NCBI GenBank assembly: GCA_002320485.1
Contig: DCKW01000050.1
Span: 1 to 48,786, forward strand
Source of the DNA: Micavibrio sp. UBA1664
Lineage (GTDB): Bacteria > Pseudomonadota > Alphaproteobacteria > Micavibrionales > UBA1664
Length of the DNA stretch: 48,786 nt
Direction: 5' to 3'
The translations under genes and the position numbers were made by a program. This document shows, one piece after another, positions 591 to 45,633 of this stretch. The notes under the pieces were generated by a model. That model did not search any database. It had not been told where the DNA came from and saw only the letters and a program-made list of their open reading frames with translations. The stretch's first letter is position 1, and each line of letters begins with the position of its first letter.

Positions 591-615
591 GGAACCATTT
601 TAAAATCAGTCCGTT
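591..615 (+). promoter_or_regulatory. ECF (EcfG-like) sigma promoter, GGAAC-N16-CGTT
   Basis: GGAAC at 591-595, 16-nt spacer, CGTT at 612-615, 33 nt upstream of the ATG at 648. Exact match to the alphaproteobacterial general-stress promoter consensus. Confidence 0.6.
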
Positions 616-2593: not shown

Positions 2594-3580
2594 TCACAAC
2601 CATTTCAATATCTTGAATAATCCGATGAAGGCTCCGCCGCACAAAACACATAATCCGACAACGATCCAGAACGCTAATGGATTATTCACCCCCGGCATTC
2701 CGCCGACATTGATACCCAACAATCCCGTCAAAAATCCCAGTGGCAAAAATATGCCTGCAATCAATGACAATGCGTATGTGTTTTTGTTCATGCGATCGGA
2801 GAGAATATTGGTATATTCTTCCTTGATAATCTGGGCCCGTTCCCGAACGGAATCCAGATCTTCCAGATATCGTGTTAGTCGATCCTGATTTTCTTGGAAT
2901 CTCCGGGTTGTATGAGCATGGATCCAAGGCATTTCGGCATTTCGCAAACTGGCCATTACGTCTTTTTGCGGTGAAATATAACGTTTAAATATAAGGGCTT
3001 TGCGGCGAACCTCGTTAACTCTTTGCCGTTCTGTTGAGCTGACATCCTCCAACATCGATTCTTCTATATCATCAATTTCTTCGCCTAATTCAAATAACAC
3101 CGGTTGCATTCGTTCGAATAATCTTTGACCCAGCATGGCCAGAAACGCACCCGCATCCTTGGGGCCTTTCCCACTATCCAGATTATCACGAATATCCTGC
3201 ACCGCCTTTAAAGGACGGCGACGTAGTGAGATTATACGGCTTTCATCAATCCATAAGCGAATGGATATCATATCTTCGGGATCGGCATTTTCCTGCAAAT
3301 TCATACCGCGTAAAATCACCATAGCCCCTTTACCGAAAAAGGTAACACGCGGGCGTGTCTCCTCGGCCAATAACGCGTCGATAATCAGAGAATCCAAATA
3401 ATCTACATTTTCCCTGAGCCAAGGCTCGGTTTCTGATGCAGTGGCATCAAGGTGAACCCAAGCGAGTTTTTTCGCTTTGATCTGTTTGTCGACCTCTTTG
3501 CCTGTGAGGGGCTTTGCTCCGCCCTTACCATCAAACTCGTAAGCGAAAAGAACAAAATTACCTTCATTAAGCTGCGTCAT
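2594..3580 (-). CDS. zntB: CorA-superfamily divalent cation transporter, ZntB-like (zinc)
   Basis: 328 aa with two C-terminal TM helices. The loop LLGINVGGMPG is a ZntB-type G-x-N motif rather than the CorA GMN. The N-terminal cytoplasmic funnel domain is present. Confidence 0.75.
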   Translation of the reverse strand: MTQLNEGNFVLFAYEFDGKGGAKPLTGKEVDKQIKAKKLAWVHLDATASETEPWLRENVDYLDSLIIDALLAEETRPRVTFFGKGAMVILRGMNLQENADPEDMISIRLWIDESRIISLRRRPLKAVQDIRDNLDSGKGPKDAGAFLAMLGQRLFERMQPVLFELGEEIDDIEESMLEDVSSTERQRVNEVRRKALIFKRYISPQKDVMASLRNAEMPWIHAHTTRRFQENQDRLTRYLEDLDSVRERAQIIKEEYTNILSDRMNKNTYALSLIAGIFLPLGFLTGLLGINVGGMPGVNNPLAFWIVVGLCVLCGGAFIGLFKILKWL

Positions 3581-3593
3581 GTGTAAAAGTGTA

Positions 3594-4937
3594 TCAGTTA
3601 ATTATGCCCTGCGCCAGAATGGCATTCGCGACCTTGCGAAAACCTGCCATATTGGCCCCGTGAATGTAACGATCCGGCGATGTCTGATCAGGCATATGAC
3701 GTTTGCATTCGTCAAAAATATCTTCCATTATGGTTTGTAAATTCTCATCAACCCTTTCTGCCGACCATTGTTCCATCATTGCATTTTGAGTGCGCTCTAT
3801 TCCGGATACGGCGACACCACCGGCATTGACAGCCTTTGAAGGAAGCAGGATTATTTTTTCTTTAAGGGCTGCCTCGCCTGCCTTACGAGTTAACGGCATA
3901 TTTGCAGCCTCACATATTATAGAGGCACCGGCTTTTGTAATGGCTTTTACCTCTGCTTCATCCACTTCATTTTGCGTAGCTGACGGGGCGGCAATGTCAT
4001 ATTTGCACAATCCCCAAGGGCTTTTACCATCGTGATACTCGGCATCTATGTTATAATCAGAATGATCGCCCAATCTACCCTTATTATCAAATTTTAATTT
4101 TTTTATCGATTTGATATCTTGAGATGTAAATCCATTATTTTTTATTAATGTTCCAGTACTGTCTGATAATGACACGACAATACCCCCCATTTGCGTCAGT
4201 TTCTCAGCCAGATATATAGCAACATTTCCGGCACCCGAGATCGCTATTTTTTGTTCTTTTACAGACTTAGCATCCGCCTGAAGTGCTCGACGCAAGAAAT
4301 AAGCCGCCCCGTAGCCCGTTGCCTCGGCGCGCATATAACTTCCGCCATAGGACGGGTCTTTTCCCGTTAAAACCCCTTGATGATGATCAGTCAGTGATTT
4401 GTAAGCGCCGAACATATAGCCGATCTCTGTCGAAGACACACCGATATCACCTGCAGGAACATCGGTTTCACGTCCGATAAAGCTTTTTAACTCAATCATG
4501 AAGGCCTGACAAAATCGCATAATTTCTTTATCGGATTTTCCCTTCGGATCAAAATCTGCCCCACCTTTCGCACCGCCCATAGGCAGACCTGTCAAAGCAT
4601 TTTTGAATGTTTGCTCATAGCTTAAAAATTGGAATGTCTCTTCTTTGACTGCCGGATGGAATCGTAATCCCCCCTTGTAAGCACCAAGCGCGTTATTATG
4701 TTGGACCCTCCATCCAGTATTGTGATGAATATCACCGCTATCATCCTGCCAGGTTACGCGAAATTTTATGGTACGATCGTGGTTAAATAAACGCTCAAAC
4801 AGACGGCCCTCTTTATAAGACGGCTCATTATCATAAATTTTCTCAATGGAATGCGCCATATCGGCAACTGCCTGATGAAACATATTGGTGTCGGGTTTCA
4901 ATTGTGAAACCACTAAATTCAGATCATTTTTGGACAT
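3594..4937 (-). CDS. gdhA: NADP-specific glutamate dehydrogenase
   Basis: Motifs seen: RVQHNNALGAYKGGLRFHP, GLPMGGAKGG, GVLTGK, and the Rossmann ISGAGNVA. I take the start at MSKNDL (4937). The track's 5048 start adds 37 non-conserved residues. Confidence 0.93.
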   Translation of the reverse strand: MSKNDLNLVVSQLKPDTNMFHQAVADMAHSIEKIYDNEPSYKEGRLFERLFNHDRTIKFRVTWQDDSGDIHHNTGWRVQHNNALGAYKGGLRFHPAVKEETFQFLSYEQTFKNALTGLPMGGAKGGADFDPKGKSDKEIMRFCQAFMIELKSFIGRETDVPAGDIGVSSTEIGYMFGAYKSLTDHHQGVLTGKDPSYGGSYMRAEATGYGAAYFLRRALQADAKSVKEQKIAISGAGNVAIYLAEKLTQMGGIVVSLSDSTGTLIKNNGFTSQDIKSIKKLKFDNKGRLGDHSDYNIDAEYHDGKSPWGLCKYDIAAPSATQNEVDEAEVKAITKAGASIICEAANMPLTRKAGEAALKEKIILLPSKAVNAGGVAVSGIERTQNAMMEQWSAERVDENLQTIMEDIFDECKRHMPDQTSPDRYIHGANMAGFRKVANAILAQGIIN

Positions 4938-5182: not shown

Positions 5183-5968
5183 TTATTGGACGGACAGTTT
5201 GAATTCCGCATTCTGGTCTTTATTCATCACGATTGATGCATCATCGTAATCTACAAGGCCTTTTGAATCCGTTGGCTTATCACCATTATAGGAAACAACC
5301 AATTTTGAGGCTTCATCCCCCTCAATGATAATACTGTCAACTTTGGCAATTTCCTTCATATCGGAATTTACAACACGCGCTCCGACCAAATTAGATGTTA
5401 AATACATATCACCTGTCACAGTATTTTTATCAAACTCGCCCATGGCTTTTAATTCGGCTTCGGTTAGATTTGTATGAAATCCTGCATTATCGCCTGTCGC
5501 TTCCATAGTCATAGACTCATAATCGACAGCAACCGTATCACCGCCTAAACCCAGCAGACCTCCACTTGTTACCACAAGTTTCTCAATATCACCTTCATTA
5601 TCTAGCATGATATCAGTGACATCACCTATTTTCTGATTTTGTGAGTTATAAACATTCATCCCCTCAATATCATCAACTGTAAAGCGGGTTTCATTGTCAA
5701 CATAGGCATCAATATCCGTATTGGTATCCAACCATTTTGCAGTTTCCTCATATGCCTTTTCAGAGCTTTCGGCAACTGAATCTGCGGCTTCTGTTACTGC
5801 TTCTTTGGTTTTGTCCCAAGCGTTTGCCGTTGCTTCTTTTGTACTTTCCCAGCCTGTTTTCGCATCGGCTTCAATTTGGGTTTCTGTTTGCACATCGGCA
5901 TTTTGTGCCATCGCAGGCACTGCAACGAACATAGTTAACGCTGATGCCGCAAGTAGTAAAGTTTTCAT
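5183..5968 (-). CDS. secreted PRC-barrel domain protein (two PRC-barrel repeats)
   Basis: Signal peptide ..VPAMAQ. Two repeats of the type V(Y/V)N..(Q/M)K(I/E)G.V.D(I/S)(M/I)(L/I)..(E/G)(G/D)...KLVV are typical of PRC barrels. Confidence 0.7.
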   Translation of the reverse strand: MKTLLLAASALTMFVAVPAMAQNADVQTETQIEADAKTGWESTKEATANAWDKTKEAVTEAADSVAESSEKAYEETAKWLDTNTDIDAYVDNETRFTVDDIEGMNVYNSQNQKIGDVTDIMLDNEGDIEKLVVTSGGLLGLGGDTVAVDYESMTMEATGDNAGFHTNLTEAELKAMGEFDKNTVTGDMYLTSNLVGARVVNSDMKEIAKVDSIIIEGDEASKLVVSYNGDKPTDSKGLVDYDDASIVMNKDQNAEFKLSVQ

Positions 5969-6039
5969 TTTTCAATCTCCTTTTGGTTTTGATGCCTTGC
6001 CAAAGGTTAAGATCAAAATTAGTTCCACCATTTTCCAAA

Positions 6040-6065
6040 GGAACTTTTCCCCGATTTCGCCCGTA
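6040..6065 (+). promoter_or_regulatory. ECF-type promoter motif GGAAC-N17-CGTA
   Basis: GGAAC at 6040-6044, CGTA at 6062-6065, 51 nt upstream of the ATG at 6116. Confidence 0.45.
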
Positions 6066-6115
6066 GATTTAACATCTACAGCACATCACTATCTATTTAA
6101 GGAGTATAAAAAATT

Positions 6116-6568
6116 ATGTCACATACCGAACGCACTTTACAAAATCTGATCAATATTTGCGAGGATGCACGTGAATTTTACAGCGACGCCATCGATCAAA
6201 CCTCAGATCCTGAGATGAAACGTCTATGCCGTCAAATGGCAGATATAAGAAAAGGGATTATTATTGATTTACGCGCCTATGCCCGTCAAAACGATCTCAA
6301 ACTTGACGAAGCATCAAATACTATCGGCGGACAGGTTAACAAATTTCTTGGCGAGCATATTGCAAAATGGAGCGACAATACCGATGAAGCCTTAATAGTA
6401 TACCTTGAGGAAGCGGAAGATCGTTGCCTTCATTCATTTCAAGAGGCCTCTAATGACGATGATCTACCTTTGGAAGCCCGCCGTTTAATTACGGAAGAGT
6501 TAACCTCTTTGCAAAAGACACACGATTATATGAAAGAATTAAAAATGGCGCTTAAAAATGCCGCTTAA
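6116..6568 (+). CDS. PA2169/DUF2383-like four-helix-bundle (ferritin-like) stress protein
   Basis: 150 aa, all-helical. The N-terminus LQNLINICEDAREFYSDAI and the later EDRCLHSFQEA resemble the DUF2383 family. Assignment is from memory. Confidence 0.5.
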   Translation: MSHTERTLQNLINICEDAREFYSDAIDQTSDPEMKRLCRQMADIRKGIIIDLRAYARQNDLKLDEASNTIGGQVNKFLGEHIAKWSDNTDEALIVYLEEAEDRCLHSFQEASNDDDLPLEARRLITEELTSLQKTHDYMKELKMALKNAA

Positions 6569-8051: not shown

Positions 8052-8079
8052 CCGGGAACTATATGTTCCCGGTTTTTTT
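8052..8079 (+). terminator. rho-independent terminator of the sigma-factor gene
   Basis: CCGGGAAC-tatat-GTTCCCGG hairpin followed by T7. Confidence 0.8.
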
Positions 8080-10312
8080 ATTTAGACTGCTTTTGATCGG
8101 TATGAATATATTTAAAGATTTTTTCTTTGAGAATATCTGTATGAATCGGTTTTGAAATATAATCCGTCATACCGGATTCAATACATTTGTTTTTGTCCTC
8201 GACCAGTGCATGGGCGGTCATACCGATAATCGGTGTGTCCTCAAAATTATTTTCTTTTTCCATGGCACGAATTTCAGAGGTGGCGGTTAAGCCATCCATT
8301 TCGGGCATCTGGACATCCATCAACACAATATCATAACGTTTTCGCTTCCACAATTCCAAGGCCTCTATTCCTGTACGCGCGACATCGTATTGAAGTCCTA
8401 TTTCCTCCATCATATAGGATAGAATAACAATATTTCCTTCATAATCCTCGACTATTAACGCGCATTGCTGAGCCTGAATAACTGAGGAAAGTTTATCGTT
8501 TAATGTACTGGCAATTTGCAGATCATCCTGATCAATTAATTGCATCAGGCGTTCCTCGACCGGCAGATAAAGTGTGAAAGTCGATCCTAGACCCTTACGA
8601 CTTACCACTTGCAAATCGCCGTCCATCAATTCAGCCAGTTTTTTGGAAATAGGTAGCCCTAATCCTGTTCCGCCATATTTTCTGGAAACACTGCTGTCAC
8701 CTTGCTTGAATTCCTTGAAAACAAAGTCCAGCATATTGTTTTCAATGCCAATTCCTGTATCTTGAACGGAGAAGGAGAGATATTTTTCTTTTTTGATCAT
8801 GTCCAGCGAGACCATCACCGTAATCATGCCCTCATCAGTGAATTTAATTGCATTCCCGATAAGATTGATCAAAATTTGCTTGATACGGTTTTCATCCCCC
8901 AGATATTCAAAGTATTTAACATCGTCATAAATAATTTTAAAATTCAAACCTTTTTCATTGGCGGGAACAGACATGATGCTGATAATTTCAGAAATAAGGT
9001 TGCCAAGAAGAAAGGGCTTATTTTCCAACTCCACTTCACCTTTTTCAATCTTTGAAAAGTCCAAAATATCGTTGACCAATCCTTTTAATGCCTTCGTACT
9101 AGTCGTAAGAGTATTGATCAGCTCCTTTTGCCGCTCATCAAAACTATCCGCCTTTTTTTGAAGAATTTCGCTGATACCGCTGATTGCGGTTAAAGGCGTT
9201 CTGATTTCATGACTCATATGCGCCAGAAAATCACTTTTGGCCGCAGAATCCTGTTCCGCCCTGATTGCATCCTGTTCCAGATTCTGTTCAAGTTTTTTAT
9301 GATCGGTAATATCACGATAGGTTCCGATAATACGAACCGCCTGCGCGTTTTCGTCACGGATAGCGAAAGCGCGGGCGTTGATCCACATGTAATGACCGGA
9401 AGAATGCCTCATTCGAAATTCGATAGAATATTCCGGCAATTCGTCATTAATATATTTCGCAGTGTGATTTCTCACCTTGTCCTTATCATCAGGATGTAAC
9501 ATGCCCTGCAATGCGCTTCGCGATGGAGAAAACTCCGCATAATTATAGCCAAGCATTTCAACCAGATATTGCGAGCAATAAATATAATTGGTTTTTATAT
9601 CCCAATCAAAAACACCCTCTCCCGCCGCCAACATGGCATATTGCAATCGTTCTTCGCTATTATATAAATCTTTACCGATAAGACGATTTTGGCGACGTAG
9701 GCGATACAAGAAATAATTTAGAACGATGAAAATTAATCCTGTAATAAAGATGAAAAAAAGTAATTCAGCTATTAGACGTTTTTGCAGACTGCCCAAGCTT
9801 ATTAATTTTTCATTCAATTCGGCATATTTTTCATCCAAAAATTTATTACGGACGGTCCGGATCTGATCTTTAAGGGTTTCTATGGATTCGGTATTTGTTA
9901 AATCAACATCCGGATCGGCAATACGGCTGTCTAGAACCTCCACTAGGTTTATATAGTAACTTTGCAATTCGATAATTTTGCTGACATTAACCGCGTTATT
10001 TTCCTCTTTCGCAATCAATTGTTCAAACGCTTGGCTGATTTCCGCCTGTTTGCCGATATATTGCTGATTAAAGATTTCGTTTTGGGTCAGAAGGTATCCT
10101 CTTTGCAGTGCAATTAAAGAAAGGATTTGACTTGAAATATCCTGAACTTCGAATATAGCCGTATGCGTGTGATCAAGCAGATTACCGGCCTCTTTAAATT
10201 CATTTTGTTTGTAGGTGGCAAAGGCTGCGGCCCCGATAAGACAAACAACCAAGGCGAAAACGGATGAAAAAAAGTTACGAGATCTAAAGAAATCCATAAC
10301 TTTATTAACCAC
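8078..10312 (-). CDS. hybrid sensor histidine kinase/response regulator (CHASE3-TM-PAS-HisKA-HATPase-REC)
   Basis: CHASE3-like N-terminus (..HTHTAIFEVQDISSQILSLIALQRGYLLT). H-box FLAHMSHEIRTPL, N-box LINLIGNAIKFT, G-boxes DTGIGI and GGTGLGL. C-terminal REC has DIVLMDVQMPEMDG and SKP. The start is uncertain: GTG 10312 or ATG 10297. Confidence 0.9.
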   Translation of the reverse strand: MVNKVMDFFRSRNFFSSVFALVVCLIGAAAFATYKQNEFKEAGNLLDHTHTAIFEVQDISSQILSLIALQRGYLLTQNEIFNQQYIGKQAEISQAFEQLIAKEENNAVNVSKIIELQSYYINLVEVLDSRIADPDVDLTNTESIETLKDQIRTVRNKFLDEKYAELNEKLISLGSLQKRLIAELLFFIFITGLIFIVLNYFLYRLRRQNRLIGKDLYNSEERLQYAMLAAGEGVFDWDIKTNYIYCSQYLVEMLGYNYAEFSPSRSALQGMLHPDDKDKVRNHTAKYINDELPEYSIEFRMRHSSGHYMWINARAFAIRDENAQAVRIIGTYRDITDHKKLEQNLEQDAIRAEQDSAAKSDFLAHMSHEIRTPLTAISGISEILQKKADSFDERQKELINTLTTSTKALKGLVNDILDFSKIEKGEVELENKPFLLGNLISEIISIMSVPANEKGLNFKIIYDDVKYFEYLGDENRIKQILINLIGNAIKFTDEGMITVMVSLDMIKKEKYLSFSVQDTGIGIENNMLDFVFKEFKQGDSSVSRKYGGTGLGLPISKKLAELMDGDLQVVSRKGLGSTFTLYLPVEERLMQLIDQDDLQIASTLNDKLSSVIQAQQCALIVEDYEGNIVILSYMMEEIGLQYDVARTGIEALELWKRKRYDIVLMDVQMPEMDGLTATSEIRAMEKENNFEDTPIIGMTAHALVEDKNKCIESGMTDYISKPIHTDILKEKIFKYIHTDQKQSK

Positions 10313-13265: not shown

Positions 13266-13913
13266 TTATTTCATTAATATGCGGTTTGTGCCGAGAACCG
13301 CAAAATGCGGATCAGGTATGATGGACCGTATTGCCGGTGACCCGCATTCTAAATGGCCTGTTAGGGTCCCAAATGCTGGCATAATTATTTTTTTCTCATT
13401 AAAAATAAAACAGGGGCGGCGCATTTTATGCCCTTTGTGAACCATTATATGACAAGGATGATAATGCCCGCTGATTTCACACATGGGGTTATCCGTTGCA
13501 ATATGTGTAAAGACTATCCCTGCAATATCGACCTTTTCGTGAACAACCACATTTTCGGGTGCATGTCCGCGGTCGTGATTGCCGTCAATCCAGATAAGTT
13601 CATGGCCGCTTATAATTGTATCGAATATTGACCGCGCCTGTTCAGCCATACGCTGATAACCATACTGATCGTGAAACACATCACCCAACAAGATCAAACG
13701 CTTCGGGGTCAAACGATCGCATGTTTTCTTCAGTTTATTTACGGTTTCAAAAGAATCATAAGGCGGTATAAAATTACCATGCCTGGCAAAATGCGAGGCT
13801 TTTTCAAAATGCAAATCCGATACAATGAGAGTGTTTTCACTTTGCCAGTAAAGTGCGCCGCAAAGTTGCGGTTGAAATTTATGGCCTGCGAATTCAATTG
13901 ACGGTGTCGACAC
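13266..13913 (-). CDS. pdeM: ligase-associated DNA damage response endonuclease PdeM (metallophosphoesterase)
   Basis: ALYWQSENTLIVSDLHFEK, LILLGDVFHD, GNHD and GHYHP are calcineurin-like phosphoesterase motifs in the PdeM arrangement. It overlaps the helicase 3' end by 20 nt. Confidence 0.85.
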   Translation of the reverse strand: MSTPSIEFAGHKFQPQLCGALYWQSENTLIVSDLHFEKASHFARHGNFIPPYDSFETVNKLKKTCDRLTPKRLILLGDVFHDQYGYQRMAEQARSIFDTIISGHELIWIDGNHDRGHAPENVVVHEKVDIAGIVFTHIATDNPMCEISGHYHPCHIMVHKGHKMRRPCFIFNEKKIIMPAFGTLTGHLECGSPAIRSIIPDPHFAVLGTNRILMK

Positions 13914-16353
13914 TGGCTTCCTTCAAAATTTGTTCCTCAATATCCTCAAAGATATACTCATCCCTGTCCTTGCGGGCAAGGGTTTCACGGGAAATTTGCA
14001 GAATTGTCGGAACCGCCATCGGTGAAATTTTTTGTAAAGGGCGATGAACTATATGACCGACAACCGATGTCAGGAAATGTTTAATCCGGTCGGCATCAAT
14101 CAAACCGTGACGGGCATCACGGTAGGCGGCGCGCAATAAAACATGATCTGGTTCATATTTCATCAATACATCATAAATAAGATCGCTGCTGACCAGAATT
14201 TGCTTGCCGGTTTTGGTGGTTCCCGGGTGACGTCGTTCAATCATTCCCGATATCACGGCGGCATCACGAAACAGCCGTTTCATCAATGGCGTATCTTGTA
14301 ACCATTCCTCAAAATCCTCAAATATAATCGACGGATCGAACAAGTTCTCGGGATGATCAAACGGTTTTAATGCCCACACCGCGAGGGCATAATCTGTCAT
14401 AACAAACCCCATCGGTCGTTTTTTCAGACGTTTCAATCGTCGTAAAATCAAAAAACCCAATGTTTCGTTGGCGTTGCGCCCTGCAAACGTATAAGCGACC
14501 ATGTAATATCTTTTTTCGAACGGGAATGTTTCAATCACCAGATTTTTCTCATCGGGTAGTTGCGATTTTTCATGTTGGAGTTCCAGCCATTCCCTGATCT
14601 GATCGGGGAATAAAGCCCATTGCTCGGGATGCCCTATCATCTGCCTGACCACATCCGATAAATGTGTCGATAGCGACATTCGTCCGCCTGCATAGTTGGG
14701 AACTTGCGCCTGTTTATCTTTCGAACGGGTGACTTTCACAAACGAGTTGTGGACACCCTGAAATTCCAGAACTTCTCCGCCAAACAAAAACGTATCGCCC
14801 GCCGTCATATTATTAACGAAGCTTTCCTCGATAGACCCGAGCGTTTTGTTTCTTAACATGACCTTTAAAATCGGCGCCTCGACGATTGTTCCGATATTCA
14901 TACGATATTGTCGTGCAATTTTTTTATCCCGCAAGGTGAAGCGGCCGTTATCCTCGCTTAGTCGGGCAAATCGGTCATAGGATTGCAGGGCATAGCCACC
15001 ATCCATTACAAACGACACCACATCATTGAAATCCTGCCGCGATAATGTTTTGTAGGGCCATGCCTTTTGAACCTCATCATAAAGCGCGTCCGCATAAAAT
15101 CCGCCGCTACATGCCACCCCGAACACATGTTGTGCAAGAACGTCCAACCCGCCCTCTTTTGGCTCCACACCATCCAGATTGCCTTTTTTAATTTCCGAAA
15201 TCGCGGCCAAACATTCAATATACTCAAACCGATTTGTCGGAACAAGAATGGCTCGGCTTGGCTCGTTTAAGCGGTGGTTTGACCGGCCGATCCTTTGTAA
15301 TAAACGCGATACACCCTTTGGCGCGCCAACCTGAACAACCAGATCGACATCGGCCCAGTCCAGCCCCAAATCGAGGGATGCGGTCGCCACCACACAATTG
15401 ATTGCGCCTTCTGCCATGGAGGTTTCGACCTTGCGGCGTAATTCCCTCTCTAATGATCCGTGATGAATCCCTATTTTCAGATTATCGTCGTTAATGGTCC
15501 AGAGACTTTGAAACAAATACTCCGCCTGAGATCGTGTATTGACAAATACCACCGCAATTTTGGCTTGGCTGACAGCTTTATAAATTTCGGGGATGGCGTA
15601 TCGCGCGCTATGACCGCTCCACGGCATATGATCCTGCGTTTGTAAAACTTCCACCTGCGGGGTTGTCACTGCGGGGGCGGTAACGATTTCTCCCTTTTTA
15701 CGGCACAGCCAGTCACACGCCGTTTCCCGATCATCCAGTGTTGCCGACAATCCGATCCGTTGCAGGTTTGGCGCAAACGTCGATAAACGCTCAAGATTGA
15801 GAGACAACAAATCCGCTCGTTTGGAGTGTAGAAAAGCATGAATTTCATCAATAATAATATATTTCAGATCTTTGAAATACGTTTCCGCATCCTCATAAGA
15901 TGTCATCAAGGCAAGGGATTCAGGTGTTGTCATCAGAATATCGGGGGGTCTGGTTTTTTGGCGTGCGCGTTTGGATTGCGGCGTATCGCCGGTACGGGTT
16001 TCATAGGTAATATCGAGCCCGATTTCCTCCAGTGGCCTTCCGATATTGCGATGAACATCCACCGCCAATGCCTTTAACGGCGAAATATACAGGGTGTGAA
16101 GTTTGCCGTTTGATCCGTTTTCGTGCAGGTCGACCAGTGAAGGTAAAAATCCGGCCATTGTTTTCCCCGCACCTGTAGGGGCGAATAAAATAAAATCGTG
16201 ACCTTTTCGCGCGGCGTTTAATCCCCTGATTTGATGGTCGAACCAGTGCCACCCCCTGTTATGCATCCATTGGGTTAATGGATGGTCGTGCAAAATCTGT
16301 GGAACCGCCACACCTTTAAACCTATTTGATTGTAAATGACTTTCTTGAACCAT
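13894..16353 (-). CDS. ligase-associated DNA damage response DEXH-box helicase (Lhr-like)
   Basis: Walker A is FAPTGAGKT. DEIH box is IIDEIH, followed by SAT. Helicase C has QRIGRSNH. A long Lhr-type C-terminal domain is present. I prefer the start at MVQESHL (16353); the track's extension to 16458 is unsupported. Confidence 0.9.
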   Translation of the reverse strand: MVQESHLQSNRFKGVAVPQILHDHPLTQWMHNRGWHWFDHQIRGLNAARKGHDFILFAPTGAGKTMAGFLPSLVDLHENGSNGKLHTLYISPLKALAVDVHRNIGRPLEEIGLDITYETRTGDTPQSKRARQKTRPPDILMTTPESLALMTSYEDAETYFKDLKYIIIDEIHAFLHSKRADLLSLNLERLSTFAPNLQRIGLSATLDDRETACDWLCRKKGEIVTAPAVTTPQVEVLQTQDHMPWSGHSARYAIPEIYKAVSQAKIAVVFVNTRSQAEYLFQSLWTINDDNLKIGIHHGSLERELRRKVETSMAEGAINCVVATASLDLGLDWADVDLVVQVGAPKGVSRLLQRIGRSNHRLNEPSRAILVPTNRFEYIECLAAISEIKKGNLDGVEPKEGGLDVLAQHVFGVACSGGFYADALYDEVQKAWPYKTLSRQDFNDVVSFVMDGGYALQSYDRFARLSEDNGRFTLRDKKIARQYRMNIGTIVEAPILKVMLRNKTLGSIEESFVNNMTAGDTFLFGGEVLEFQGVHNSFVKVTRSKDKQAQVPNYAGGRMSLSTHLSDVVRQMIGHPEQWALFPDQIREWLELQHEKSQLPDEKNLVIETFPFEKRYYMVAYTFAGRNANETLGFLILRRLKRLKKRPMGFVMTDYALAVWALKPFDHPENLFDPSIIFEDFEEWLQDTPLMKRLFRDAAVISGMIERRHPGTTKTGKQILVSSDLIYDVLMKYEPDHVLLRAAYRDARHGLIDADRIKHFLTSVVGHIVHRPLQKISPMAVPTILQISRETLARKDRDEYIFEDIEEQILKEASVDTVN

Positions 16354-17328
16354 CAGCTTTATATAGACCAAATCAACACGTATATCGATCCGATGGTTCC
16401 GCGTGAAACGGCAATCATAACGCACGGCCATGCCGATCATGCCCGTTTCGGCCATCAAAAAGTAATTGCCACCCCTGAAACAATTGCCATTATGAAGGCC
16501 CGTTACGGCGACAATTGCGCGCAGGAATTTCGTCCTCTTCCCCTAAGGCAGACTATGCGAATGGGAGAAATTGACATTACGCTTTATCCCGCAGGTCATG
16601 TTCTGGGAAGCGCGCAAGTGCTTTTAAATGACGGACAAACACGTATCGTTGTGACGGGCGATTACAAACGGGGAAAGGACTCAACATGCGCCGATTATGA
16701 AATTGTTCCGTGCGATATTCTGGTTACCGAGGCAACGTTCGGCCTGCCTGTTTTTCAACATCCCGACCCGCGTGTTGAAATTCAAAAATTATTGCAATCG
16801 GTCAATAACAATCCGGATCGCGCTCACCTGATTGGTGCCTATGCCCTTGGCAAGGGACAACGTGTTATCAAATTACTACGTGAGTCGGGTTACGATAAAA
16901 CAATTTATTTGCATGGGGCGCAGCGTAAGTTATGTGATCTCTACCAAGCGCACGGGATTGATCTAGGCGTTCTTGAAAATGTCGGAAACCGTAAAAAAAG
17001 TGATTTTGCGGGGGAAATTATTGTTGCGCCTCCCAGTGCGATCAAGGATAGATGGTCCCGCCGTTTTCCCGACCCTGTCATTGCCATGGCCAGCGGATGG
17101 ATGCAGGTTAAACAACGCGCTCGGCAAAAAGGTGTGGAATTGCCTTTAATCATTTCAGATCATTGCGATTGGAACGAGTTATTGCAAACCATTCAGGATA
17201 CGGGGGCGAAAACGATCTGGGTCACGCATGGACGCGAAGATGCCCTTGTCCATTATTGTCAAACGCATCTAGGACTTGAGGCCGAACCCTTGTCGATACA
17301 GGGCTTGGGCGAGGGAGAAGACGAATGA
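16336..17328 (+). CDS. ligase-associated DNA damage response exonuclease (metallo-beta-lactamase/beta-CASP fold)
   Basis: It has the HxHxDH motif (ITHGHADHARFGH) and is 330 aa. It is translationally coupled (ATGA) to the ATP-dependent ligase. Confidence 0.85.
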   Translation: MTFLNHQLYIDQINTYIDPMVPRETAIITHGHADHARFGHQKVIATPETIAIMKARYGDNCAQEFRPLPLRQTMRMGEIDITLYPAGHVLGSAQVLLNDGQTRIVVTGDYKRGKDSTCADYEIVPCDILVTEATFGLPVFQHPDPRVEIQKLLQSVNNNPDRAHLIGAYALGKGQRVIKLLRESGYDKTIYLHGAQRKLCDLYQAHGIDLGVLENVGNRKKSDFAGEIIVAPPSAIKDRWSRRFPDPVIAMASGWMQVKQRARQKGVELPLIISDHCDWNELLQTIQDTGAKTIWVTHGREDALVHYCQTHLGLEAEPLSIQGLGEGEDE

Positions 17329-18899
17329 AAGAATTTGCAATCTTGCTTGAAAAGCTTGCTCTGACGCCTTCCAGAAACAGGAAAATCGCCTTAATCAGTG
17401 ATTATATGGCTGTTACGCCCGACCCCGATCGTGGATTAGCGTTAGCGATCCTGACAAATAATATGACATTTACGCATATCAAATCTGGAAAATTAAAAGA
17501 TATTGCAAAAAATCATGTCGATGAATTTCTGTTCAAACTGTCCTACAATTATGTTGGGGACACGGCGGAGACAATCGCCCTTATATGGCCCTATTACGAG
17601 GAAGGATATGATTTACCGCCATTGCATCGGATAGTTGAAGAGTTTGAAAATACCCCGAAGTCTGACATTCCGAAAATGATTGAGAATTATTTGACCATTG
17701 CCACACCGAACGAGCGATGGGCGATGATCAAAATTGCAACCGGCGGCCTGAGAATTGGCGTATCGGAACGTCTTGCAAAAACCGCTTTGGCAAAATTCGG
17801 CAATAAGGATTTACAGGAAATAGAAGAGATATGGCATGGATTAAAACCACCCTATCTATCACTATTCGACTGGATTGAGGGCAAAGGCCCTAAACCGCAT
17901 GTAAAATTTTCGGATGTGTTTCATCCCCTGATGCTTTCGACCCCCATCGACGAGGAAAAGGATTTCGAAAAACTTGATATTGCTGATTTTCAGGTCGAAT
18001 GGAAATGGGACGGCATTCGCGTACAACTTGTAATGGACGGCGACAAACGCGCGCTATTTTCACGAACAGGTGACGATATTTCGGCCGCATTTCCCGACAT
18101 TACCCAGAATGTCAACGGCTCTGCGGTTTTGGATGGCGAGCTTTTGGTGGGCAAAGATTTCATGCCGGATAGTTTCAATCATTTGCAACAGCGCCTGAAC
18201 AGAAAGACCGTCACCCAAAAACAAATGAGCAGCCACCCCGCCTACATTTGTGTTTATGACATGCTGTTTGATAATGGGGAGGATATTCGCAATCTGCCGT
18301 TGATCCAACGACGTAAACGCCTTGAGGAATGGTTTGACAAAAACCCGCAAACACGCCTGACATTATCGGAAATATTAGAGTCGTCCACATGGGATAGCGT
18401 TACGTCAACCCGTCAAAAAGGTGCCGACGACCATGGTCATGAGGGAGTGATGATAAAACGCAAAGAAAGCGTTTACGTCCCCGGCCGTCCGCGCGGCGAA
18501 TGGTTTAAATGGAAACGCAACCCGTTCTTTGTCGATGCCGTCATGATGTATGGGCAACGCGGGCATGGTAAACGGTCTTCCTATTATTCCGATTACACCT
18601 TTGGAGTGTGGGACGGCAACAATATCGTTCCCATAGGTAAAGCCTATTCCGGTTTTACAGATGAAGAACTTGTCCTCCTTGATAAATTTGTCCGCAACAA
18701 CACCGTGTCGCGTTTCGGTCCCGTGCGTGAAGTCAAAAAAGAGCTGGTACTGGAAATTGCTTTTGACTCGATGCAGGAAAGTACACGGCATAAATCGGGA
18801 ATAGCCTTACGGTTTCCGCGTATCCATCGAATCCGCTGGGACAAACCCGTTCAGGAGGTTCAATCGCTCAGCGAAATACGCCGAGAATTTTTAATTTAA
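17325..18899 (+). CDS. ATP-dependent DNA ligase (cisplatin-damage-response type)
   Basis: Adenylation motif I is EWKWDGIR (KxDG). Further motifs are LDGELLV, YICVYDML and EGVMIKR, followed by an OB-fold C-terminus. Confidence 0.9.
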   Translation: MKEFAILLEKLALTPSRNRKIALISDYMAVTPDPDRGLALAILTNNMTFTHIKSGKLKDIAKNHVDEFLFKLSYNYVGDTAETIALIWPYYEEGYDLPPLHRIVEEFENTPKSDIPKMIENYLTIATPNERWAMIKIATGGLRIGVSERLAKTALAKFGNKDLQEIEEIWHGLKPPYLSLFDWIEGKGPKPHVKFSDVFHPLMLSTPIDEEKDFEKLDIADFQVEWKWDGIRVQLVMDGDKRALFSRTGDDISAAFPDITQNVNGSAVLDGELLVGKDFMPDSFNHLQQRLNRKTVTQKQMSSHPAYICVYDMLFDNGEDIRNLPLIQRRKRLEEWFDKNPQTRLTLSEILESSTWDSVTSTRQKGADDHGHEGVMIKRKESVYVPGRPRGEWFKWKRNPFFVDAVMMYGQRGHGKRSSYYSDYTFGVWDGNNIVPIGKAYSGFTDEELVLLDKFVRNNTVSRFGPVREVKKELVLEIAFDSMQESTRHKSGIALRFPRIHRIRWDKPVQEVQSLSEIRREFLI

Positions 18900-18948
18900 A
18901 AACTTAAAAAAATAATGAACCTTTTTGATCGTGGTTTGTTAGCTATAT

Positions 18949-19033
18949 AATAGCAGGGGCGCTGTTTATTTATAAATGGCTGAGACGCACCCTTTGAACC
19001 TGAAACGGGTAATGCCGTCGCAAGGAAGCTATT
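18949..19033 (+). promoter_or_regulatory. TPP (THI-box) riboswitch aptamer
   Basis: P1 is AUAGC(18950-54)/GCUAU(19028-32). Conserved blocks are GGGGCGC, GGCUGAGA, ACCCUUUGAACCUGA, the ACGGGUAAUGCCGU helix and CGCAAGGAAG. There is one deviation from the usual ..AGGGA.. (here AAGGA). Confidence 0.8.
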
Positions 19034-19037
19034 TCAC

Positions 19038-19079
19038 GGAAACCCCTGCTTCTTTTGAAGTCTGGGGTTTCCTTTTTTT
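19038..19079 (+). terminator. riboswitch expression platform: intrinsic terminator with competing antiterminator
   Basis: GGAAACCCC (19038-46) pairs with GGGGTTTCC (19064-72), followed by T7. CCCCTGCT (19043-50) is the exact complement of aptamer bases AGCAGGGG (18952-59). Confidence 0.8.
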
Positions 19080-19157
19080 AAAAACACCTTAACTTTTTTT
19101 TAACTCCCGTAAGTAAAAATAAATTTAACTGTCAATCAAATTTTTTAAAACATAACT

Positions 19158-19499
19158 ATGTATGACTCTCAAAAACTAGATATTTTTCTCAATCAATTTG
19201 GTGAAACAAAACATCAAATGTTATTGGAAGCCTATTCATCCAGCCTGGCTGAGCAACGGGAAGAATGTAAAAAAGCCCTTGCGAATAGCGACGTGCGTAA
19301 ATTATATTTTTTGACACATGATATTAAATCCATTGCACTAGCAATCGGCGCCCACGATTTGGGTCATACGGCCCAATCCATCGAAAAAAATGCGAAAAAC
19401 GATAATGATAAAGCTGCATTAACTGATGTTCCGCAGTTGATCGATTATATTGAGGACCTTAAGGCCGTTATCGATAATGCATTGGCCACAGGCCGATAA
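19158..19499 (+). CDS. Hpt (histidine phosphotransfer) domain protein
   Basis: 113 aa helical bundle. FLTHDIKSIALAIGAHDLGHTAQSIE matches the Hpt consensus (aHxLKGsa..iGa..L......lE) with the phospho-accepting His. Confidence 0.7.
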   Translation: MYDSQKLDIFLNQFGETKHQMLLEAYSSSLAEQREECKKALANSDVRKLYFLTHDIKSIALAIGAHDLGHTAQSIEKNAKNDNDKAALTDVPQLIDYIEDLKAVIDNALATGR

Positions 19500-19502
19500 C
19501 AT

Positions 19503-22500
19503 TTAATTCATGTATTCCTTGATTTTATTATATAGAATTTCTGTTTTGACGGGTTTGGATAGATAATCGTTCATCCCAACTTCTATACATTGTTCTTTTT
19601 CCTCGGCCATTGCATTGGCTGTCATCGCAATAATAATATTCGTATGCGTAATTTTTCCTTCTGCCTCCAATTTGCGAATTGCCTTTGTTGCATCAAAACC
19701 ATCCATAACGGGCATCATACAATCCATCAGAACAATATCGTAAGGCGGATTTGCCATACCGACTTTATCTATGGCTTCTTGTCCATTTTGCGCCAAATCC
19801 ACCTTGCATTTCATTGATTCCAGCATATCGGTTGCAACCATTTGGTTAATGAATTCGTTTTCAACAAGCAATATCCGTGCATTTAAAACCCTTTTATCTT
19901 CGCCGGTTTTAGATTGTACGGCTTTTTTCGTAGTTGGAATAATTGCATCTTCAATAATATCGCATGGAATATTGAACGTGAAAGTCGTTCCCTCACCCAC
20001 AACGCTTTTAACATCGATATTTCCGCCCATCATCTCCACCAATTTTTTACTGATGGCCAGTCCTAAACCGGTTCCGCCATATTTTTTCGTGGTTGTCGCA
20101 TCCGCTTGTCCAAATTTATCGAAGATAGTTTCCAGTTTGTTTTGCGGGATTCCAATGCCCGTGTCTTCGACCTTTACGTTCAATACAAATTGGTCGGACC
20201 GGTTTGTTTCACCATCCAATAGAATACGGATATATCCCTGATCCACAAACTTTACGGCATTCCCCAACAGGTTGGTCATAATCTGGCTTAAACGAGTGCT
20301 ATCAATATTGAGTGTGGGAATAGTATTTTTATAAATAAATTCCAACAAAATATTTTTGGCATTCGCACGCGGAAGGAAAATAGTTTTTATACGGTGCATG
20401 AAATCATGAATGTTAACCGGCTCCGGATGAATATCCATTTCACCCGCCTCAATTTTTGACAGATCCAAAATATCATTAATCAAAGATAATAATGTATCGC
20501 CCGAATTGGTAATCGCTTCCAGATATTTATCCTGTTTTTGTGTAATTTTGGTATTGCTTCTCAACAGGTCGGCCGCACCGATAACACCATTTAAGGGTGT
20601 CCTGATTTCATGGCTCATATTGGCAAGAAATTCCGACTTCATAATGTTGGCACGCGTGGCCTCTTCCCGCGCAATTTCCATTTGAGTGGTGTATAAATTA
20701 CGTTCAATCTCAATTTCCTTGCGTTGGGTAATATCCTGAATTTGAGAGATAAAATAAATAATATCACCATCATCATCACGCACAGTTGATACGTTTAGTA
20801 AAGCCCAGACAATATGCCCGTCTTTATGATAATATCGTTTTTCCATTTGATAGGTTGATATGTCGCCTGCAAGAATTTTTTTAAGGCGTTTTAAATCCCC
20901 CTCCAAATCATCCGGATGTGTAATAGTTTGAAAATCAATATTCATCAATTCATCGCGTGTATAGCCAAGTATTTCAACCAAAGCGACATTGACCGTCAGC
21001 CATTTTCCTTCGGGCGAAACCAATGCCATCCCAATAGCCGAATTTTCCATCGCGGTTCTGAATTGCTGCTCACTGTTTTTAAGCTCGTTTGCTTTGATAT
21101 GTAACAATCGGGTTTGTCTGCTTGCGGCCATGGCATAATAAATGGCAAACCCGATTAAAACAGACATAAACATTCCGCCTAACAATATAATCAGCGGTAA
21201 ATAGGATTTTTGGGTTTCCATGAAGCGGGATGTAGGCCAAACCCGAACCGTCCATATACGGTTGAAAAATACGATGTCAGATTGTATCGCCATGCCCTCA
21301 TGTCGAGCTGCATCTTCCCCTGTTTGTGTGTAAACGACTGCCTTCCCATCGCTGATTTCGATATTAAACATTTCCCGCGTTTCGGCAGAAAGACTGTTTT
21401 TAAAAAACAAATCCAGGTCATAAATTCCGGTGATAAATCCGTCAAAGCTTTGATTAGGGTAGAGCGGGATATAGCAAATAATCGCTTTATACCCCTGCAC
21501 TAAGTTTATGGGAGGTGTCATGGTTATTGTGTCGGGTGTCATAGCCTCTTCTATTAATGTACGTCGTTCACCATTGAAGGTTACATCAAGGCCTATTATA
21601 TTTTCATTCTTCTCCAACGGTTGAACCCAACGGACATGGAAATCCCTGTCAACCCATTGCAATGTCGTGAGGGCTTGCGTATCGTTTAATAAATTTAAGG
21701 CTTCCGCATTCCATTCATTTTCAGGAATACCATTGCGGCTTTGCCACCTTAGGGCCATTCGACGTTGCGCAATAATTGTATAGCGAATCGTATTATTAAC
21801 GGCCTTTTTTACACTGTCCAATTCATCAGTTAACGATTTTACAACTAACGACTTTTCCTCCTGAGCCATCTGCACATATGTCAGACCTGCGATAGCAAAT
21901 GTTAACATCCCTGCCATGACGGGAATAATATATAAAGCGGATTCGCCTTGCCCTCGCACATAAGATCGGCGTGCGTTTTCGGTGTTCGCGGAGATTATAA
22001 GCAGCATGGCACCGAGAAGACCAGAAAACATAAGCCCGACAATAAGGATATACCATAAGGACCAGTTATAGGATAAAGCGGATTTTGTATCATTTTGAAT
22101 GAAATGCATTTCCCATTCATGTCCGGCAACAGAGACGTTTATTTTTGTCTGTATTCTGTTTTGCGATACAGGTGGATGATGGGGGTTTTCTTTGAAATCA
22201 CTGCTACGTGTATCGTATAAAATATTATTTTGTTTGGCGCTTAAATCCTGCATCACCAAAATCATATTTTTTTGTTTTAAGAGATTGAAAACAGGCTCCA
22301 TCATCTTGCGGACAATAAAGACACCCGCTGTGTAGCCGATCAGGTTTTCACGGCGGGCAATAACATCATTTAAGGTGGATGATATACCGTAGACGGGATT
22401 ATAAAAAATAATACCGTACTCGTTTTCCGCCTGCACAAGAGATATTCGACTGGTAGCCATTACCGCGCTTTCATCGCGGGCACGATCGAGTGTTTTACTC

Positions 22501-23573
22501 CGAATATCCCCTGCTATCGCATCAATACTGTATGTATCATAGCCCAAGGCCGTCTGGTTATTATCGGAAGTCACTGTGTAAGTCACCGGAAAATAGACTG
22601 GCCTTTGGCCTGCCGCACCATTTTGGCCGTTTCCTAACCTTTCCCATATCTCGAAATTTGGAAACCCTTGTGTACGGATGTAATTTTCAAATTCCGCGCG
22701 TTGCGGTAGCATCACCTTTTGATTCCATGATAATGATTGAATACCAGGATATGTATCTAATAATTTACCCGAAAAATTACGAAATTCTTGGTCTGTTACT
22801 TCATCGGAAGACATAACGAATTGTGCGTTGGCAACAAGAATATCAAAATACCCTTGCAAATTTTTCTCGAACACATCGACAATTTCATTGGCGCTGTTTT
22901 TAAACTCATCCAGCCTTTTTTGCTCAACGGTATTTTTTGCACCGATAAACAGGAAAATGGCCATGGCAGCGAATAGGCTTAATGGAATAACGACAATGGT
23001 TTTTCGTAAAATACTAGATGTGGGGCTGGCTAAGATTAAAATGACCGGCGCAAAAAGCAAGACACCTATCGTATCCCCCACCCACCACGTAAACACGTTA
23101 ATAGAAAATGCCTCAGGCGGAAGGACACCTGATAAATATAATACAGCCGGACCTATCGTTGCATTAATCAGGCATGAGACAACGCCGCCGAAAAACAAAA
23201 GGGCAAAGATATCTTTTTCCGATCTCAAAATGGTCGGATCATTCACTTTCACCTTTACCAACCTACCGCCGCAATAAGCTTGCAACATAGCACCGAAAGC
23301 GATTCCCACCGCCACGATAATGGATTTAAATTCAGTGATGTCCGCTCCGTTAGAAGAGGCAACGAAAAAATTGATAATCAATGATCCTGCAAACACGGCC
23401 GGCAACATCTTTCGGCCGCCCAATAAAACGCCGGCAAGGGCAACACCCGCCGCAGGCCATACCGGAGAGGCAAATCCCGGCGGAATTGCCAACATAAGGG
23501 ACAAACGACCCACACAAGCATAAGCTGCCGCCAACATTAAGAATTTTAAAACGAATATTACAAATGTTCTCAT
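19503..23573 (-). CDS. hybrid sensor histidine kinase/response regulator (MASE1-CHASE-TM-periplasmic domain-TM-PAS-HisKA-HATPase-REC)
   Basis: MASE1-like N-terminus (GFASPVWPAAGVALAGVLLGG, ~8 TM). CHASE-like block (PGIQSLSWNQKV...PVYFPVTYT...ALGYDTYS). PAS domain. H-box FLANMSHEIRTPLNG, N-box GNAVKF, G-boxes DTGIGI and GGTGLGL. REC has DIVLMDCMMPVMDG and SKP. Confidence 0.9.
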   Translation of the reverse strand: MRTFVIFVLKFLMLAAAYACVGRLSLMLAIPPGFASPVWPAAGVALAGVLLGGRKMLPAVFAGSLIINFFVASSNGADITEFKSIIVAVGIAFGAMLQAYCGGRLVKVKVNDPTILRSEKDIFALLFFGGVVSCLINATIGPAVLYLSGVLPPEAFSINVFTWWVGDTIGVLLFAPVILILASPTSSILRKTIVVIPLSLFAAMAIFLFIGAKNTVEQKRLDEFKNSANEIVDVFEKNLQGYFDILVANAQFVMSSDEVTDQEFRNFSGKLLDTYPGIQSLSWNQKVMLPQRAEFENYIRTQGFPNFEIWERLGNGQNGAAGQRPVYFPVTYTVTSDNNQTALGYDTYSIDAIAGDIRSKTLDRARDESAVMATSRISLVQAENEYGIIFYNPVYGISSTLNDVIARRENLIGYTAGVFIVRKMMEPVFNLLKQKNMILVMQDLSAKQNNILYDTRSSDFKENPHHPPVSQNRIQTKINVSVAGHEWEMHFIQNDTKSALSYNWSLWYILIVGLMFSGLLGAMLLIISANTENARRSYVRGQGESALYIIPVMAGMLTFAIAGLTYVQMAQEEKSLVVKSLTDELDSVKKAVNNTIRYTIIAQRRMALRWQSRNGIPENEWNAEALNLLNDTQALTTLQWVDRDFHVRWVQPLEKNENIIGLDVTFNGERRTLIEEAMTPDTITMTPPINLVQGYKAIICYIPLYPNQSFDGFITGIYDLDLFFKNSLSAETREMFNIEISDGKAVVYTQTGEDAARHEGMAIQSDIVFFNRIWTVRVWPTSRFMETQKSYLPLIILLGGMFMSVLIGFAIYYAMAASRQTRLLHIKANELKNSEQQFRTAMENSAIGMALVSPEGKWLTVNVALVEILGYTRDELMNIDFQTITHPDDLEGDLKRLKKILAGDISTYQMEKRYYHKDGHIVWALLNVSTVRDDDGDIIYFISQIQDITQRKEIEIERNLYTTQMEIAREEATRANIMKSEFLANMSHEIRTPLNGVIGAADLLRSNTKITQKQDKYLEAITNSGDTLLSLINDILDLSKIEAGEMDIHPEPVNIHDFMHRIKTIFLPRANAKNILLEFIYKNTIPTLNIDSTRLSQIMTNLLGNAVKFVDQGYIRILLDGETNRSDQFVLNVKVEDTGIGIPQNKLETIFDKFGQADATTTKKYGGTGLGLAISKKLVEMMGGNIDVKSVVGEGTTFTFNIPCDIIEDAIIPTTKKAVQSKTGEDKRVLNARILLVENEFINQMVATDMLESMKCKVDLAQNGQEAIDKVGMANPPYDIVLMDCMMPVMDGFDATKAIRKLEAEGKITHTNIIIAMTANAMAEEKEQCIEVGMNDYLSKPVKTEILYNKIKEYMN

Positions 23574-35120: not shown

Positions 35121-35195
35121 TGGTGCCGGCAGCAAGATTCGAACTCGCGACCTTTCGATTACAAATCGACTGCACTACCACTGTGCTATGCCGGC
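35121..35195 (-). tRNA. tRNA-Thr (anticodon UGU), CCA encoded
   Basis: The reverse complement GCCGGCA-TA-GCAC-AGTGGTA-GTGC-A-GTCGA-TTTGTAA-TCGAA-AGGTC-GCGAG-TTCGAAT-CTTGC-TGCCGGC-ACCA folds as a cloverleaf. The 7-nt anticodon loop is UU-UGU-AA. Confidence 0.9.
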
Positions 35196-44355: not shown

Positions 44356-44367
44356 ATCGCTTCTTTT

Positions 44368-44376
44368 TTATCCACA
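44368..44376 (+). promoter_or_regulatory. perfect DnaA box TTATCCACA
   Basis: Exact 9-mer in the divergent hutG-like/dnaN intergenic region. Confidence 0.6.
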
Positions 44377-44393
44377 CTGGTAATTGATTTTTC

Positions 44394-44421
44394 CCGTCAA
44401 AGTCAAGCATTGTCTTGACGG
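44394..44421. repeat. inverted repeat CCGTCAA...TTGACGG (with a nested GTCAAG/CTTGAC alternative) upstream of dnaN
   Basis: Read directly from the sequence. The outer stem is 7 bp and the inner stem is 6 bp. Confidence 0.5.
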
Positions 44422-44485
44422 AAAATCGTTTCTGGTTAATATCAATCCAAAGAATTGACCGGAAGACGAGAAGGACATACAAACA

Positions 44486-45604: not shown

Positions 45605-45633
45605 TTGCACTGAAAAAAAATGAAATTGTTAAT

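Follow-up and report, generated by a model that had tools for sequence, protein, structure and literature searches.

A complete thiamine pyrophosphate riboswitch precedes an Hpt phosphotransfer gene in a marine Micavibrio lineage

What does a thiamine pyrophosphate (TPP) riboswitch regulate when no thiamine gene lies beside it? TPP riboswitches control thiamine biosynthesis, salvage and transport genes, and the genes downstream of them are routinely used to predict thiamine-related functions. An original prediction, made from the letters of contig DCKW01000050.1 of Micavibrio sp. UBA1664 (positions 1 to 48,786 of the forward strand; this whole stretch of 48,786 nucleotides (nt) is the window), described an intact TPP aptamer with a terminator/antiterminator switch, followed by a gene for an Hpt phosphotransfer protein. 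It offered two options: an Hpt relay gated by TPP status, or an element that is either a recently orphaned riboswitch or the source of a stand-alone terminated RNA. The analyses presented here indicate that, judged from its sequence, the element is a genuine and complete TPP riboswitch and, as an RNA, an ordinary member of the RF00059 family that would bind TPP. The reading that we favour, and to which we give about an even chance, is that it operates as a TPP OFF terminator switch whose read-through transcripts carry Hpt, in an arrangement produced by a lineage-specific rearrangement.

The whole window was scanned with cmscan against Rfam 15. Two matches exceeded their gathering scores, a tRNA and RF00059, the TPP riboswitch family, the latter at 18945-19044 on the + strand (66.0 bits versus a gathering score of 54.3; E = 7.3e-11) in an alignment that spanned the full model, with positions 1-105 all matched. 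The TPP (THI-box) aptamer occupies 18949-19033, where the minimum free energy (MFE) structure agrees with the Rfam match. It consists of P1 (A-AUAGC at 18949-18954 with GCUAU-U at 19028-19033), P2 (18955-60/18987-93), P3 (18961-68/18973-80), J3/2 (UGAGAC) and P4-P5 (19008-19025), all on the + strand, and lacks the optional P3a insertion. All helices of the three-way junction formed by P1, P2-P3 and P4-P5 were recovered in both the MFE and the co-transcriptional folds. The conserved consensus stretches GGGG-GC, GCUGAGA and ACCCUUUGAACCUGA were present, together with the ACGG/CCGU helix and its GUAAUG loop, the P5 helix with a UAAU loop and the CG of J5/4. In TPP aptamers, CUGAGA in J3/2 forms the pyrimidine sensor and ACCUGA, with the J5/4 CG in P4-P5, the pyrophosphate sensor; these ligand-contact motifs were all found in the cmscan alignment. 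Over 18940-19085, the MFE fold comprised the aptamer followed by a hairpin (19038-19072) and a run of seven U residues (U7), at -47.6 kcal/mol (z = -3.4 versus shuffles). The covariance model score and the positions of these features thus agree with the intact aptamer of the original prediction.

The hairpin and its U-tract form a predicted intrinsic terminator at 19038-19079 (+), with a 9-bp stem (GGAAACCCC at 19038-19046 paired with GGGGUUUCC at 19064-19072), an inner CUUC/GAAG stem and U7 at 19073-19079. In the terminator 5′ arm, CCCCUGCU (19043-19050, +) is the predicted 3′ strand of an antiterminator and complements AGCAGGGG (18952-18959, +) exactly over 8 nt. As AGCAGGGG overlaps the 5′ strands of P1 and P2, it would be sequestered by ligand binding. 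When nascent transcripts were folded at increasing lengths and their MFE states compared, the preferred structure changed twice. Up to 19037 it was the aptamer with P1 formed (-24.4 kcal/mol); with the 3′ end at 19050-19063 it was the AGCAGGGG/CCCCUGCU antiterminator, with P1 and P2 broken (-31.7 to -32.0 kcal/mol); and from 19072 onwards it was the terminator (-46.5/-47.6 kcal/mol, versus -36.9 kcal/mol with the antiterminator forced). Taken alone, the terminator hairpin was worth -21.8 kcal/mol and the antiterminator duplex -16.6 kcal/mol. An 8-nt complement to the P1/P2 5′ strand occurred in about 1% of shuffles of the downstream 52 nt; of 6934 other 52-mers in the window, 73 contained one. 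Given this chance expectation of about 1%, and since the 8-nt complement also overlaps the terminator arm, we conclude that the platform is not a chance feature. A strict terminator scan of 18700-19700 called no site, the riboswitch hairpin included, which the scanner missed because the hairpin loop is longer than 8 nt. In the folding model, the succession from aptamer to antiterminator to terminator matches the usual layout of an OFF riboswitch under kinetic control, where the ligand would have to hold P1/P2 through 19050-19063. The terminator/antiterminator switch proposed before is therefore reproduced when its two alternative structures are folded, the 8-nt pairing being the MFE state at nascent lengths 19050-19063.

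An unusual junction of this kind could in principle result from a chance resemblance or an assembly chimera, leaving no real riboswitch at a real junction. Among ENA, Logan and Tara Oceans assemblies, at least 23 contigs carry the Hpt gene; we compared 10 of them, 9 of which include the riboswitch. Three (L001, L002 and L008) span the ligase gene upstream, the riboswitch and Hpt, and the other six (L003-L007 and L009) start inside the ligase gene or 3′ of it and cover the riboswitch, Hpt and the kinase gene that follows. Identity to the window is 99.8-100% across as much as 20 kb of these contigs, and the riboswitch region shows 100% identity. The junction is thus present in at least nine independent marine assemblies, from different samples and pipelines, and is no assembly artefact. 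Only the odd context speaks for chance or chimera; the Rfam match, above the gathering threshold with an E value of 7e-11, and the recurrence of the ligase-riboswitch-Hpt junction in three independent assemblies and of the riboswitch-Hpt-kinase order in six further ones effectively refute it, and we regard it as vanishingly improbable.

On the 5′ side of the riboswitch, genes for PdeM (13266-13913, -), an Lhr-core helicase (13894-16458, -), an exonuclease (16336-17328, +) and an ATP-dependent DNA ligase (17325-18899, +; TIGR04120, 744.6 bits; Pfam DNA_ligase_A_M and DNA_ligase_A_C), all above their NCBIfam cut-offs, make up a complete ligase-associated DNA-damage-response module with the ligase as its last gene, so that the riboswitch does follow the 3′ end of a DNA-ligase operon, as had been stated. 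Measured from the ligase stop codon, the Rfam match starts 46 nt and P1 50 nt downstream. No terminator was seen between the ligase stop and the aptamer in the strict scan of 18700-19700; ligase-operon transcripts must therefore run into the riboswitch, whose hairpin is the only terminator-like structure 3′ of the ligase stop. As a separate observation, the sequence tGAAC-N16-tGTT at 18916-18940 (+) resembles the alphaproteobacterial extracytoplasmic function (ECF)/EcfG promoter GGAAC-N16-17-CGTT at 7 of 9 positions and would, if used, start transcription at about 18947-18950, immediately before P1. This is a post hoc match; the window holds 3 copies of the exact pattern, versus 0.55 expected. 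A related GAAC-N16-CGTT sequence at 592-615 (+) is intergenic, upstream of an OmpA-family gene (852-1448), and may represent an EcfG-type general-stress promoter. Nearby, at 5183-6568, are PRC-barrel and DUF2383 genes, which are typical of the general-stress (EcfG-type) regulon and also adjoin a related kinase-Hpt locus (L024). Within the repair module itself, the longest helicase open reading frame (ORF; 13894-16458) overlaps the divergent exonuclease gene (16336-17328) by 123 nt. In contig annotations, a helicase of 754 amino acids (aa) starts at about 16158, so that a divergent promoter region of 177 nt remains between the two halves of the module.

On the 3′ side, an AT-rich spacer of 78 nt (19080-19157, +) separates the U-tract from the Hpt start, and scans of it found no ORF, no terminator and no sigma-70-like site at our threshold of at least 9 of 12 matches. 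The spacer holds three TTAACT hexamers (19089, 19100 and 19125; + strand, 19089-19130), the first two of which are 11 nt apart, as in direct-repeat response-regulator boxes, and which could mark a regulated promoter proximal to Hpt. The Hpt gene (19158-19499, +) encodes a stand-alone, LuxU-like protein of 113 aa that matches PF01627 with 37.3 bits (cut-off 24.6) over 82 of 84 profile positions. Its phospho-accepting His54 lies in an HDIKS motif (H-x-x-K-G/S), and H54, D55, S58, G69 and A72 are invariant in an alignment of 21 family members. Its profile matches the PDB Hpt domains 7c1i and 3myf and LuxU (1y6d) with E values from 2e-4 to 4e-3, whereas the LuxU equivalog NF041948 scored 29.3 bits (E = 9e-7), far under its cut-off of 140. 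By these comparisons, the protein resembles LuxU in role and is not a LuxU orthologue. Convergent with Hpt, with 3 nt between the stop codons, is the gene for a MASE1-CHASE-PAS-HisKA-HATPase-REC hybrid kinase of 1356 aa (19503-23573, -; domains from Pfam), which is likely the phosphodonor for Hpt. A second hybrid kinase (CHASE3-PAS-HisKA-HATPase-REC, without an Hpt domain; 8078-10312, -) is a possible second input to it, and no terminal response regulator was identified in the window. The Hpt protein, its distance from the U-tract and both REC-bearing kinases are thus as first described. The absence of a nearby thi-type gene also held: a Pfam search for thiamine families among window ORFs of at least 100 aa found none, and no thiamine gene was found in the 9 kb beyond the left end of the window.

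The riboswitch and Hpt are co-oriented (+), and with no ORF or terminator between the U-tract and Hpt every read-through transcript would include Hpt. Read-through into Hpt is mechanically unavoidable if the element is transcribed, and this geometry means that an orphaned riboswitch and one that regulates Hpt are not mutually exclusive. No strong + strand terminator was seen 3′ of Hpt either, so such a transcript would run on antisense into the kinase gene. We propose the following mechanism. With TPP bound, P1 and P2 would hold AGCAGGGG (18952-59), and the hairpin at 19038-19072 with U7 would stop the polymerase at about 19079. At low TPP, AGCAGGGG would instead pair with CCCCUGCU (19043-50), the terminator 5′ arm would be removed and the polymerase would read on. 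The resulting transcripts would carry Hpt, whether begun at a riboswitch promoter or in the ligase operon, and would then enter the convergent hybrid kinase gene from its 3′ end, in antisense. When TPP is scarce, part of Hpt expression would thus rise, and with it the capacity of the hybrid-kinase-to-Hpt relay. As for its origin, a rearrangement may have set an ancestral Hpt/kinase unit beside a riboswitch that had lost its original thiamine gene.

In order to place this arrangement among relatives, we compared each of its sides. For the ligase side, 13 GTDB loci were compared, 11 of them from alphaproteobacterial metagenome-assembled genomes (MAGs) at 61-65% ligase identity. The four-gene repair module is kept in most of the closer ligase loci. 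The genes 3′ of the ligase are varied, unrelated and mostly convergent (FAD oxidase, glycosyltransferase, ABC-F, aldehyde dehydrogenase and acyl-CoA synthetase), and neither a TPP-core motif, by a regex pattern search rather than Rfam, nor a downstream thi gene was found in these loci. The possibility that a thi gene kept at this position in relatives has simply been deleted here was examined on these loci; varied non-thi genes stand there, and it is rejected as far as such distant relatives allow. On the kinase side, a search with the kinase N-terminus gave best hits of about 40% identity, and no TPP element was found in these relatives, which include L024, where the kinase is followed by Hpt in the same direction.

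For Hpt, an exhaustive HMMER search gave 61 hits, stand-alone proteins of about 113 aa, the best 49% identical. A word-index search with Hpt returned its own cluster only, a profile search for closer intermediates found none in the databases searched, and a metagenome scan with a three-sequence Hpt alignment yielded one remote locus. In L029-L031, an Hpt gene (52% identical over 92 aa) lies tail to tail with the gene for a MASE1-CHASE-PAS hybrid kinase of the same architecture as in the window (49% identical in the sensor part, 64% in the kinase-REC part), and an AlaRS-like gene and a 497-nt spacer lie upstream of Hpt. That spacer has no Rfam family matches in L029, where RF00059 gave no hit even at E values up to 10; it is AT-rich and contains a GC-rich perfect hairpin, GGCGGCAG...CUGCCGCC (L029:5641-5670). 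L032, a 1.5-kb contig compared over L032:1-1100 with window positions 3360-3600 and 19158-19800, carries a corA 5′ end that is 79% (nt) and 92% (aa) identical to the window corA and divergent from an Hpt gene (46% identical), which itself converges on a kinase REC end (63% identical). A distance of 15.6 kb separates corA from Hpt in the window, so that the L032 layout represents either a paralogous Hpt/kinase pair or a large rearrangement. In L033/L034, an AraC gene precedes the Hpt/kinase pair, with LuxI/LuxR and a sigma-54 regulator close by, and in L035 and L036/L037 Hpt adjoins REC or LuxO-like sigma-54 regulators and hybrid kinases.

The partnership of Hpt with a REC-bearing hybrid kinase therefore extends to L029, L032 and L033, with hybrid kinases also nearby in L036, and where the pair is convergent the Hpt proteins are 37-52% identical to ours. 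The location of family members beside LuxR/LuxI (autoinducer synthase) and sigma-54 LuxO-like regulators (L033:2701-6342 and L036:5001-9631) suggests that this Hpt family serves quorum-sensing-type phosphorelays. These sequence comparisons mark the convergent Hpt/kinase unit as ancestral. Each relative has a different gene 5′ of Hpt, and only the lineage of the window has the riboswitch, placed precisely where the repair module meets the Hpt/kinase pair. The ancestral pair and its differing 5′ flanks fit juxtaposition by rearrangement, and the comparisons as a whole support a lineage-specific juxtaposition at a rearrangement-prone junction. Conservation of the riboswitch-Hpt adjacency was not borne out, as no TPP element was found in any relative recovered, and a relay designed to be gated by TPP, the first option of the original prediction, gains no comparative support, given the Hpt/kinase pairs without a TPP element in L029-L037.

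Several results weigh against a working OFF switch that feeds Hpt. Upstream of the orthologous or paralogous Hpt genes of L029-L037 there is no RF00059 hit at the gathering score. In relatives, a short upstream region of its own (24-133 nt) drives Hpt, which makes a promoter within 19080-19157 that bypasses the switch plausible. The population is effectively clonal and hence offers no covariation signal and no evidence of purifying selection. A sigma-70 promoter scan (at least 9 of 12 matches) gave no convincing site upstream of P1. The aptamer departs from the consensus once, with AGGAA in place of AGGGA just 3′ of P4, a stretch with lower posterior probability in the RF00059 alignment. Hpt has no Shine-Dalgarno sequence; AGGA/GGAG precedes many genes of the window, but neither Hpt nor the convergent kinase. 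Finally, our literature search found no report of a TPP riboswitch upstream of an Hpt, two-component or signalling gene.

The main rival explanation is that the element is an orphaned relic. It is possible, if on balance doubtful, that a rearrangement split the riboswitch from its thiamine gene and that Hpt uses its own promoter in 19080-19157; with equal reserve, the element would now end its own short transcript and/or the ligase operon, its decay yet to come. The absence of the element from all Hpt relatives and all ligase-module relatives, the different Hpt 5′ flank in every relative and the short private upstream regions that drive Hpt there all fit this account, as does the hairpin being the only terminator-like structure after the ligase stop, and TPP riboswitches elsewhere accompany thiamine genes. 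However, the aptamer and platform are fully intact, down to the exact 8-nt antiterminator, no promoter-like site was detected in the 78-nt spacer, and full insulation of Hpt would require constitutive termination or no transcription of the element. A more ambitious account, which we consider unlikely, takes TPP status as a selected phosphorelay input, with the relay switched on under thiamine starvation through gating of Hpt. If so, the only Hpt available to two hybrid kinases would be gated, possibly with antisense transcription into one of them, and a marine alphaproteobacterium that is probably associated with a host or prey would have its signalling and behaviour linked to vitamin B1 scarcity, which is common in the surface ocean. 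A TPP riboswitch aimed in this way at signalling, and not at thiamine metabolism, would be the first of its kind.

The same geometry could act on the kinase instead. In the manner of AspocR, a long low-TPP transcript would run through Hpt into the REC-coding 3′ end of the hybrid kinase gene and lower the kinase by antisense pairing or transcriptional interference, with Hpt as a passenger or co-regulated, an account that we hold to be improbable in both its parts. As at lmo1149/pocR (PMC5449094), the element does stand 3′ of one gene with a regulator gene converging on it, and the Hpt and kinase stops are 3 nt apart with no strong + strand terminator after Hpt; yet relatives without the riboswitch also have short-spaced convergent Hpt/kinase pairs, so the overlap is not specific to the element, and the long antisense transcript is a proposal from geometry without direct evidence. 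Very unlikely, in our view, is a stand-alone terminated RNA of about 130 nt that acts in trans in the way of SreA/SreB, pairing with or titrating a target encoded elsewhere in the genome, or is a by-product of TPP-dependent termination. The compact platform and strong terminator would suit it and terminated riboswitch RNAs are known to work in trans (PMC5449094), but no target can be named and nothing in the sequence demands a trans function. Compared with these accounts, the OFF switch reading through into Hpt remains the one that we prefer.

TPP riboswitches are the commonest riboswitch class, with about 16,700 representatives in nearly all bacterial lineages (PMC5473149). The element resembles the canonical TPP terminator riboswitches of thiC, tenA and thiamine transporter leaders in its P1-P5 architecture, in CUGAGA, ACCUGA and the J5/4 CG, in its predicted OFF logic, in the mutual exclusion of P1/P2 and antiterminator, and in its intrinsic terminator with U-tract. 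In contrast to them, it is followed by a signalling gene, Hpt, instead of the thi gene that typically, though not by definition, accompanies such elements, it sits 46 nt past the stop of a DNA-repair operon without a clear promoter of its own, and its gene association is not conserved in relatives. The RNA and its ordinary terminator platform are therefore of a known kind, and what is unusual is the target gene. As the association occurs in one clonal lineage and is absent from relatives, we file it as an atypical context and not as a new regulatory class.

The nearest precedents come from other cofactor riboswitches. In Listeria monocytogenes, a B12 riboswitch controls AspocR, which is antisense to pocR, and the B12-riboswitch RNAs Rli55/EutX of Listeria and Enterococcus sequester the response regulator EutV (PMC5449094). 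As with AspocR, the cofactor riboswitch described here follows the 3′ end of one gene and converges on a regulatory gene, and as with AspocR and Rli55/EutX its output, here predicted from sequence, would reach a regulator or two-component pathway and not an enzyme of metabolism (PMC5449094). Unlike in those systems, in which the regulated pathway uses the cofactor and the read-through RNA is non-coding, the RNA here encodes Hpt. Likewise, a terminated transcript could exist as a discrete small RNA, as do the SreA/SreB S-adenosylmethionine (SAM) riboswitch RNAs, although SreA still controls its own downstream transporter operon (PMC5449094). The protein side recalls the Vibrio LuxQ/LuxN-LuxU-LuxO relay, in having a stand-alone Hpt of about 113 aa with H-x-x-K-S, REC-bearing hybrid kinases and, in other family members (L033 and L036), neighbouring sigma-54 LuxO-like regulators and LuxI/LuxR; it differs in its weak LuxU similarity and in its MASE1-CHASE-PAS input kinase. 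LuxU is not, to our knowledge, controlled by a riboswitch, and we know of no link between TPP and a kinase/Hpt relay.

The Hpt pairing may be a novel regulatory link, or genome rearrangement may have produced it as a by-product. If functional, it would show a cofactor riboswitch rewired into signal transduction, which has so far been documented mainly for Firmicutes B12 riboswitches. A complete TPP switch in front of a phosphorelay component also counsels caution in guilt-by-association annotation. Since rearrangement can set an existing regulator before a new gene, the locus is possibly a snapshot either of regulatory innovation or of an element nearing decay.

Further features of the surroundings were observed. 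Just beyond the left end of the window are RNase P RNA (L039:5798-6155) and the dcw cell-division cluster; the replication origin region, dnaA-dnaN-recF (42085-46796), is some 23 kb rightwards of the riboswitch. For the ligase module, the kinase, a sigma factor and a response regulator, the best homologues come from alphaproteobacterial MAGs, namely Micavibrio-like ones, a 'Rickettsiales bacterium' and Devosiaceae. A placement in the Legionellales, suggested by DotM/DotL, was rejected on the strength of these homologues. A DotM-like gene (35335-36591) and one for a DotL-like type IV coupling protein (37177-39585) adjoin a tRNA (35124-35195, -) in a genome of otherwise alphaproteobacterial appearance, and hint at type IVB secretion and at life in association with a host or prey.

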